A stretch of DNA of 64,000 nucleotides from Eledone cirrhosa (lineage: Eukaryota). Below, one piece after another: positions 13,226-14,230 of this stretch (its first letter is position 1; the number at the start of each line of letters is the position of its first letter). The translations under genes and the position numbers were made by a program. The notes under the pieces were generated by a model. It was not told the DNA's origin and ran no database searches. It was given only the letters and a program-made list of their open reading frames with translations. The stretch spans positions 288,486,001 through 288,550,000 of the forward strand of contig OZ024740.1 of NCBI GenBank assembly GCA_964016885.1, written 5' to 3'.

Positions 13226-13533
13226 TATACACACTTACACAATGATTAAACTATTAACCTAGTCTTGTACATCTTTATTTTACTAACAGAGTTTAGTTGG
13301 AAGGATTTCTGATTATGTTCTTTGGTCACATTTCTACATTTCTGATTTTAAGAAGTAATCATATATATGTAATAAGTGTTGATAGTCTGAGAGTTGTAGT
13401 CTTTGTCTTTCACTACAAAACACATGAAGTGAGGCTTTAAGAATTGTACTGTTTTTTTTTTCTTTGACTTTTAACTACGATATCACTAATAATTCAGTTT
13501 TATAATGTAGTTTTCTTTTTTTTTTTCTTACAG

Positions 13534-13583
13534 GTAAGTCATTCCTATTTGCAAAATCTCACTACACAGATTTCTAATGCAAG
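13534..13583 (+). other. Candidate 50-nt exon beginning with a regenerated 5' splice site (recursive splice site)
   Basis: TTTTCTTTTTTTTTTTCTTACAG|GTAAGT at 13511-13539; second donor AAG|GTAAGT at 13583/13584; CACTAAT branch-like motif at 13484-13490. Confidence 0.65.
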
Positions 13584-14230
13584 GTAAGTTCAGAGTTTGG
13601 TAAATTGTCAGTGTGGCAGTTTAGATGTTGCTTTTGGGTAATTTAGCTTTTATTCTTGATTTTTTGGGGGGAGGGGGGGGGGGGGTCTTAGTTTTAGTTT
13701 CTGATCAAGCAGAACTATGATTAAAAGCATTCTTACCAGGACTATCCCATTTTTGTTTCAAGTCACAGGACACACAAAATCACATCTAATGTGTCCTTCT
13801 TTTCAAAGATCGTAGTGTGTGATTTGGGAAAGATTTGACTGCTATTTCAAGCAGATAGCATGACTATGTAGAGTTGTCCTCATTAGATCATGTTTATTTT
13901 TATTTTTTTAATGGAGGATCTTTCTATCTTGCTAAAAGAGTTACAAGTCTACCATTTTGGTGGAGTTAGTATTATAAATAATAATTGAACTCCTGCAAGT
14001 GACATTGTTTGCTAATGGGTGGATTTAGGTGAACACCTAAGCATATTACAGATCATTTTGTAAACGGAAACCACTTAGAATAGATATTTTCTAGGTCTCA
14101 CATTATCTGATGCCTTTTCATTTAACTACATGGCAGAATTGTTAGGGTGTCAGACAAAATGCCTGTGGTATTTAATTAGTTTTGAATTCAAATTCTGCAG
14201 AAGTCAACTTCATCTTTCATCCTTCTAGAG

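Follow-up and report, generated by a model that had tools for sequence, protein, structure and literature searches.

A likely ratchet point with a 50-nt cryptic exon in the long first intron of an octopod ankyrin gene

Recursive splicing in described systems

In Drosophila, ratchet points with cryptic RS-exons, such as those of Ubx, kuz, and Bx, have been demonstrated by RNA and by genetics, and they consist of a strong acceptor fused to GTAAGT (PMC8605326, PMC6110457). The cryptic RS-exon in flies is about 50 nt long and generally out of frame, and the Ubx microexons measure 51 nt (PMC8605326), just as the original prediction for the locus described here had stated in naming these precedents. 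The fly sites number a hundred or more per genome and lie in long, often first, introns, which they divide into segments of about 9-15 kb (PMC6110457), and the ratchet donor usually prevails over the donor of the RS-exon.

In the mouse, a recursive site in Ank3 (chr10:69595048) is followed by a 79-nt RS-exon and is represented by 173 upstream and 4 downstream junction reads. At a site in Lsamp, where the two donors score 11 vs 11, there are 161 upstream vs 5 downstream junction reads (PMC8797253). Five first exons precede the 102-nt exon that encodes the first ankyrin (ANK) repeat of mouse Ank3 (PMC4449188), and the Ank3 site probably lies in an upstream intron system equivalent to that of the octopod gene, because it is 61 kb from an upstream exon ending in AAG and because of the sizes of the introns (PMC4449188).

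Enrichment of the ratchet motif has also been found in long introns of fly, mosquito, bee, beetle, and sea urchin (Shepard et al. 2009, PMC2773006). The word "mollus" is absent from that paper, and the passages of it that were compared include no test for a downstream RS-exon donor. Given this excess in insects and sea urchin, a mollusc case would be an expected extension (PMC2773006). A literature search, with most subscription papers outside its scope, found no report of recursive splicing in molluscs; there were no joint matches with "octopus", and those with "mollus" were unrelated titles with single mentions. Recursive splicing is already established in flies and mammals and motif-inferred in other insects and sea urchin.

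The octopod site lies in a window of 64,000 nt (the whole stretch of DNA analysed) from Eledone cirrhosa, and unlike the demonstrated ratchet points of Drosophila it is known from sequence alone. It resembles the sites of Ubx, kuz, and Bx in its strong acceptor fused to GTAAGT, in a donor about 50 nt downstream, and in an out-of-frame cryptic exon, and the long, often first, host introns and the hundred or more sites per genome are common to Drosophila and to this genome. However, the segments at the ankyrin site exceed 80 kb, in contrast to those of flies, a length within the range of mouse recursive sites (PMC8797253), and its two donors tie, whereas the fly ratchet donor usually wins.

With mouse Ank3 the octopod site shares its gene family, the sequence AGGTAAGT behind a T/C tract, and a gene layout in which long introns separate alternative first exons from an ANK-repeat-1 exon of 102 nt; it offers a same-gene comparison. 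The downstream donor of the mouse site is the weaker one (8.44 vs 11 at the octopod site). Sequence homology between the two sites is not expected, and their resemblance may reflect either shared ancestry or convergence. Drosophila Ank2 was not found by FlyBase id in the supplementary files of PMC6110457, although these files may use other identifiers or be incomplete, and a ratchet point in a fly ankyrin gene may exist.

The ankyrin site and its host intron

The analysis covered 100 kb on either side of the window and then 200 kb more upstream. A rough exon finder and protein matches placed ankyrin-repeat exons downstream of the site on the + strand. The encoded sequences match ankyrin of Octopus bimaculoides at 95-100% (98% for the ankyrin-repeat exons), and the full-length matching proteins of that species carry ZU5, UPA, and death domains. 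By these matches, the host gene is an octopod ankyrin of the ANK1/2/3 family, read from the + strand.

With boundaries mapped by means of proteins of related species, the host intron spans 166,999 nt, with 80,874 nt ahead of the ratchet site and 86,125 nt after it; because a 200-N assembly gap is located at -33477, within the first segment, the intron length and the 81-kb segment are approximate and the position of the site as a midpoint is uncertain. What had been described as a probable cephalopod long intron is consequently a first ankyrin intron of ~167 kb, and the site lies on its sense strand.

Among the cephalopod ankyrin entries that were grouped, four ANK-bearing N-termini are found, three of which map at this locus (Table 1). 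For each of these three first exons, the junction with the 102-nt SDGN exon at 99659 is in phase 0. M-SDGN, the remaining N-terminus, accounts for 83 of the 96 entries grouped. Transcripts starting at 20211 or 76748 would bypass the site, because both of these first exons are downstream of 13534.

Table 1. Positions of the ankyrin exons and of the putative recursive-splicing signals, relative to the window.
Feature	Position	Strand	Remark
Ankyrin intron containing the whole window	1..64000	+	from first coding exon (-67400..-67341) to ANK-repeat-1 exon (99659..99760)
First coding exon MKSAK...DQ	-67400..-67341	+	19/20 residues identical
Putative ratchet-point 3' splice site	13486..13533	+	branch-like motifs, 19-nt polypyrimidine tract 13511-13529, ACAG
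Putative ratchet-point donor GTAAGT, fused to acceptor	13534..13539	+	CAG/GTAAGT predicted after joining to upstream first exon
Putative cryptic RS-exon, 50 nt	13534..13583	+	frameshifting; if included, stop at codon 60 in next exon
Second (RS-exon) donor AAG/GTAAGT	13584..13589	+	AG/GTAAGT here in 3/99 class members only
Nested alternative first coding exon MTAILTPAS...	20211..20297	+	residues 1-27 the same as in RefSeq isoforms X17/X20 of O. bimaculoides
Alternative first exon MLKKWISW	76748	+	mapped from cephalopod N-terminus

The sequence at 13533/13534 agrees in each respect with the original prediction. A run of 19 pyrimidines and ACAG (13530-13533) leads directly into GTAAGT, and exactly 50 nt on, a second donor has its GT at 13584-13585; the exon between the two donors is open in the first frame alone (VSHSYLQNLTTQISNA). 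The predicted location in non-repeat sequence also holds, in that the stretch has a single match in its own genome, indicating single-copy DNA, and lies outside tandem repeats and, at points sampled every 100 nt, outside interspersed repeats. A high-copy repeat upstream stops at ~13231. Spanning low-depth contigs from three DNA runs show no substituted letters over the site, but these runs represent one sample, possibly that of the assembly itself, and are not independent.

Upstream of the acceptor, the branch-like candidates are CTAAT at 13486, which is the best, and TAAT at 13503; the position of the branch point is uncertain because other AG dinucleotides, at 13496-13497 and 13509-13510, intervene between CTAAT and the acceptor. 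The element ranks first among the 13 exon candidates that the rough exon finder returned over 264 kb, and among 18 relaxed matches to the fused motif in 464 kb it alone combines an acceptor and a fused donor that are each very strong, as in the arrangement (YnYAG/GTAAGT, both halves strong) of known recursive splice sites. By chance, about 0.0002 strict motifs would be expected on one strand of a 167-kb intron. With weights taken from consensus frequencies rather than trained on octopus introns, the regenerated CAG/GTAAGT scores 9.2 vs 8.2 for the AAG/GTAAGT of the RS-exon. The MaxEnt scores are 10.86 for CAGGTAAGT vs 11 for AAGGTAAGT, these 9-mer values being those given in the mouse table of PMC8797253.

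A genome-wide class of fused splice signals

The strict pattern Y16-N-YAG/GTAAGT has 65 matches in the genome vs 12 for the reversed pattern. When the +5 base is changed to A, C, or T, 28 matches are found for the three bases together, and when the G of the acceptor is changed, 46 are found, again for three bases; at the same base ratio, these controls lead to an expectation of 4.5-6 and about 10 strict matches, respectively. A relaxed pattern (Y12) gives 120 matches vs 82 for three control bases, with 13-18 expected. The class thus exceeds expectation 7- to 14-fold, and about 85-90% of the strict matches represent excess.

Second donors were sought at 61 of the 65 strict sites (4 on small contigs were left out) and at all 28 controls; removal of duplicates (2 sites and 1 control) left 59 sites and 27 controls. 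The second donors pile up 40-80 nt downstream of the strict sites. Within 30-90 nt, a donor scoring at least 3 is present at 30 of 59 sites vs 6.0% of flanking windows, and at 2 of 27 controls (Fisher p 6e-5 for sites vs controls). Because this interval was picked after the data had been seen, a hold-out set was tested, consisting of 40 of 55 further sites, with one probable duplicate skipped and one duplicated pair kept. Here a second donor was present at 10 of 40 sites vs a background of 5.2% (p 3e-5). The downstream-donor peak is real but weaker in the hold-out set (25% vs 51%). Even among the strict sites, a good second donor is missing from about half. The 40 exons that such donors define have a median length of 54 nt and show no preference for multiples of three (lengths modulo 3 are distributed 12:13:15, and 7 of the 40 are frame-neutral).

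Other properties accompany the motif as well. A branch-like YTRAY is found at 36 of 59 sites vs 5 of 27 controls, and a skew of T over A at 45 of 59 vs 12 of 27; neither G-C skew nor CpG depletion distinguished members of the class from controls. Clustering was examined for 99 of the 100 relaxed sites listed (contigs C1-C17), after 4 suspected duplicates were dropped. Fourteen adjacent pairs are less than 700 kb apart vs 2.7 expected under a uniform null that ignores gene density, and the two sites are on the same strand in 13 of these 14 pairs; the 62 controls yield 2 adjacent pairs. An origin of the class in a repeat family was rejected: long flanks are common to only 4 pairs among the 61 sites, of which 2 were dropped as duplicates and 2 looser pairs were kept.

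By its arrangement of signals, the ankyrin site is a member of a genome-wide class with the architecture of Drosophila ratchet points and cryptic RS-exons. The value of the site lies in this genome-wide signature together with the Ank3 parallel. Cephalopod genes have very long introns, which in this genome are likely cut out in steps at about a hundred such fused signals, and the list of about 120 coordinates makes recursive splicing directly testable. In addition, because second donors peak near 54 nt, the exon-definition route to recursive splicing seems to reach into the third main branch of the Bilateria.

Three further clusters, on contigs C4, C7, and C15, were picked by hand; same-strand coding exons lie 50-260 kb downstream of their sites, which are presumed to be intronic. 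On C4 (G000:C4:186.84-186.97 Mb), two sites (L153 and L049), whose second donors, 46 and 62 nt away, are the strongest, are followed on their own strand by a VWA_N exon (E 1.6e-14), which we take to belong to an alpha-2-delta-type calcium-channel subunit. On C7 (G000:C7:16.62-16.79 Mb), three same-strand sites (L162, L163, and L202), 63 and 112 kb apart, are followed on that strand by exons with some likeness to a Cys-loop channel (Pfam E 0.095, atlas score 0.93). The locus is absent from the list returned by a genome-wide PF02931 search, and the matches give weak evidence that the host might be such a channel. On C15, an open frame of 1.5 kb (L219:3660-5211, minus strand) lies on the same strand 103 kb downstream of the site; it comprises about 517 codons, is serine-rich and unnamed, and stands between splice-like ends. 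A Pfam search named neither the C4 nor the C15 candidate exons, and PDB searches with one exon each from C4, C7, and C15 gave nothing meaningful. A host-gene scan within 5 kb of 60 sites, which used 91 candidate ORFs (90 of 111 candidates and one RS-exon frame), found only reverse-transcriptase/PHD pieces and low-complexity DUF matches.

Predicted removal of the intron and other features of the locus

The ankyrin site is probably a functional ratchet point whose 50-nt cryptic exon is skipped as a rule; by way of this site, the first intron of ~167 kb is predicted to be excised in two stages. In this model, which follows the fly and mammalian systems, the strong acceptor would be recognized by U2/U2AF and the donor 50 nt further on by U1, and a short exon would thereby be defined. 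The far-upstream first exon, whose donor is CAG/GTTTGT, would then be spliced to the ratchet acceptor, taking out about 81 kb. This join would recreate CAG/GTAAGT in competition with the AAG/GTAAGT of the exon, and the recreated donor would usually win. A second splice would take out the exon and about 86 kb, giving the normal DQ/SD junction. Only transcripts that start upstream of 13534 would be affected. The recursive-splicing reading of the original prediction is supported in the DNA itself by a long intron read in the sense direction, an exon that would break the frame, an enriched motif class, and a downstream-donor peak replicated in the hold-out set.

The skipped form, in which the first exon is joined directly to the SDGN exon, is present in both proteins (2/2) with the MKSAK first exon, P0226 (O. 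bimaculoides X4) and P0220 (Argonauta hians), which are gene models from other species that may or may not have the ratchet site. Inclusion of the 50 nt, which lie between two phase-0 junctions, would shift the frame, as expected of a short out-of-frame cryptic exon with its own downstream donor, and the resulting stop lies within the SDGN exon, 32 nt short of its end and ahead of many further junctions. Occasional use of the second donor would consequently yield a 59-codon product and an mRNA that is a target of nonsense-mediated decay. Leakage into such a decay-bound form is plausible, because the donors tie and a perfect second donor is as rare in the class as Table 1 indicates. Unlike most class members, the ankyrin site has two donors of about equal strength, and inclusion of the 50 nt may be substantial.

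Such considerations could be carried further to the idea that the 50 nt constitute a regularly included exon. This might be a poison exon, by which nonsense-mediated decay modulates the long-promoter ankyrin isoform, or it might belong to the 5' UTR of transcripts whose first exon is non-coding and unannotated; the GTAAGT at +1 would then be a minor or switch-like route. In strength, the second donor not only equals the ratchet donor but also ranks in the top 3 of the 99 sites, strong downstream donors in the mouse accompany detectable downstream intermediates (PMC8797253), and expressed RS-exons exist in flies and mammals (PMC8605326). Furthermore, other upstream exons may exist, because the origin of the common M-SDGN isoform is unmapped. 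However, the peptide of the exon occurs in none of the four ANK-bearing N-terminus types grouped from cephalopod entries, the Lsamp site with its equal donors is still skipped in 161 of 166 junction reads (PMC8797253), and an ordinary exon has no need of a perfect donor at its start, the feature that defines a class in 7- to 14-fold excess. Regular inclusion consequently appears improbable. A search for short proteins with the upstream first exon, which might represent an inclusion product, was uninformative (6 candidates scored; 1 genomic ORF of the SDGN exon returned).

Two coding roles for the exon were also considered. A frame-preserving microexon of the Ubx m1/m2 type was rejected, because 50 nt is not a multiple of three and inclusion leads to a frameshift and a stop. 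A start codon within the exon (ATG at 13577), once joined to the SDGN exon, would give just M-Q-E-stop.

It is very improbable that a poly-T tract and donor-like words merely came together here by neutral coincidence, or that the motif is a disused relic, in an intron removed in one step. The 3 Gb genome is rich in T-tracts, the controls assign about 5-10 of the 65 strict matches to chance, and the window was chosen by a reader seeking oddities. However, most of the strict matches are excess, and the ankyrin site, on the correct strand of a long intron, is followed at the modal distance by a perfect second donor (the chance of a second AGGTAAGT within a 61-nt window being about 0.0014).

Beyond the two-step removal of this one intron, a wider proposal can be made, to which we give limited credence. 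The giant genes of cephalopods would undergo fly-type recursive splicing at at least 100 cryptic-exon ratchet points, about 60-150 kb apart. The ankyrin site, together with that of mouse Ank3, would reflect a need to divide this particular intron that is ancient in the Bilateria or has arisen there repeatedly, and the tied donors would serve as a switch, directing some of the isoform from the longest promoter to decay.

Several other features of the locus can be mentioned. Ahead of the first exon at 20211, about 100 nt from its ATG, TGACGTCA is followed directly by ATTGG (20104-20115). We take these words, by consensus, to be a CRE and a CCAAT box, which suggests an internal, possibly activity-regulated promoter. 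At 55122-55159, a TATAAA-like word, a CpG-rich patch, and ATG/GTAAGC make up 1 of 20 candidates for the first exon of the M-SDGN isoform. The exons for ankyrin residues 55-120 are missing from this part of the assembly, where a 200-N gap (112397-112596; L016) occupies their expected place. LINE-like element fragments are located at 8411-9088, 38098-39343, and 44419-45977, and similar copies elsewhere in the genome encode a reverse transcriptase with a PHD/C1-like finger after it. Finally, from -300000 to 164000, the observed/expected ratio of CpG declines from about 0.8 upstream to 0.2-0.4 within the ankyrin gene, a depletion that deepens from about -100 kb onward and is consistent with a methylated gene body.
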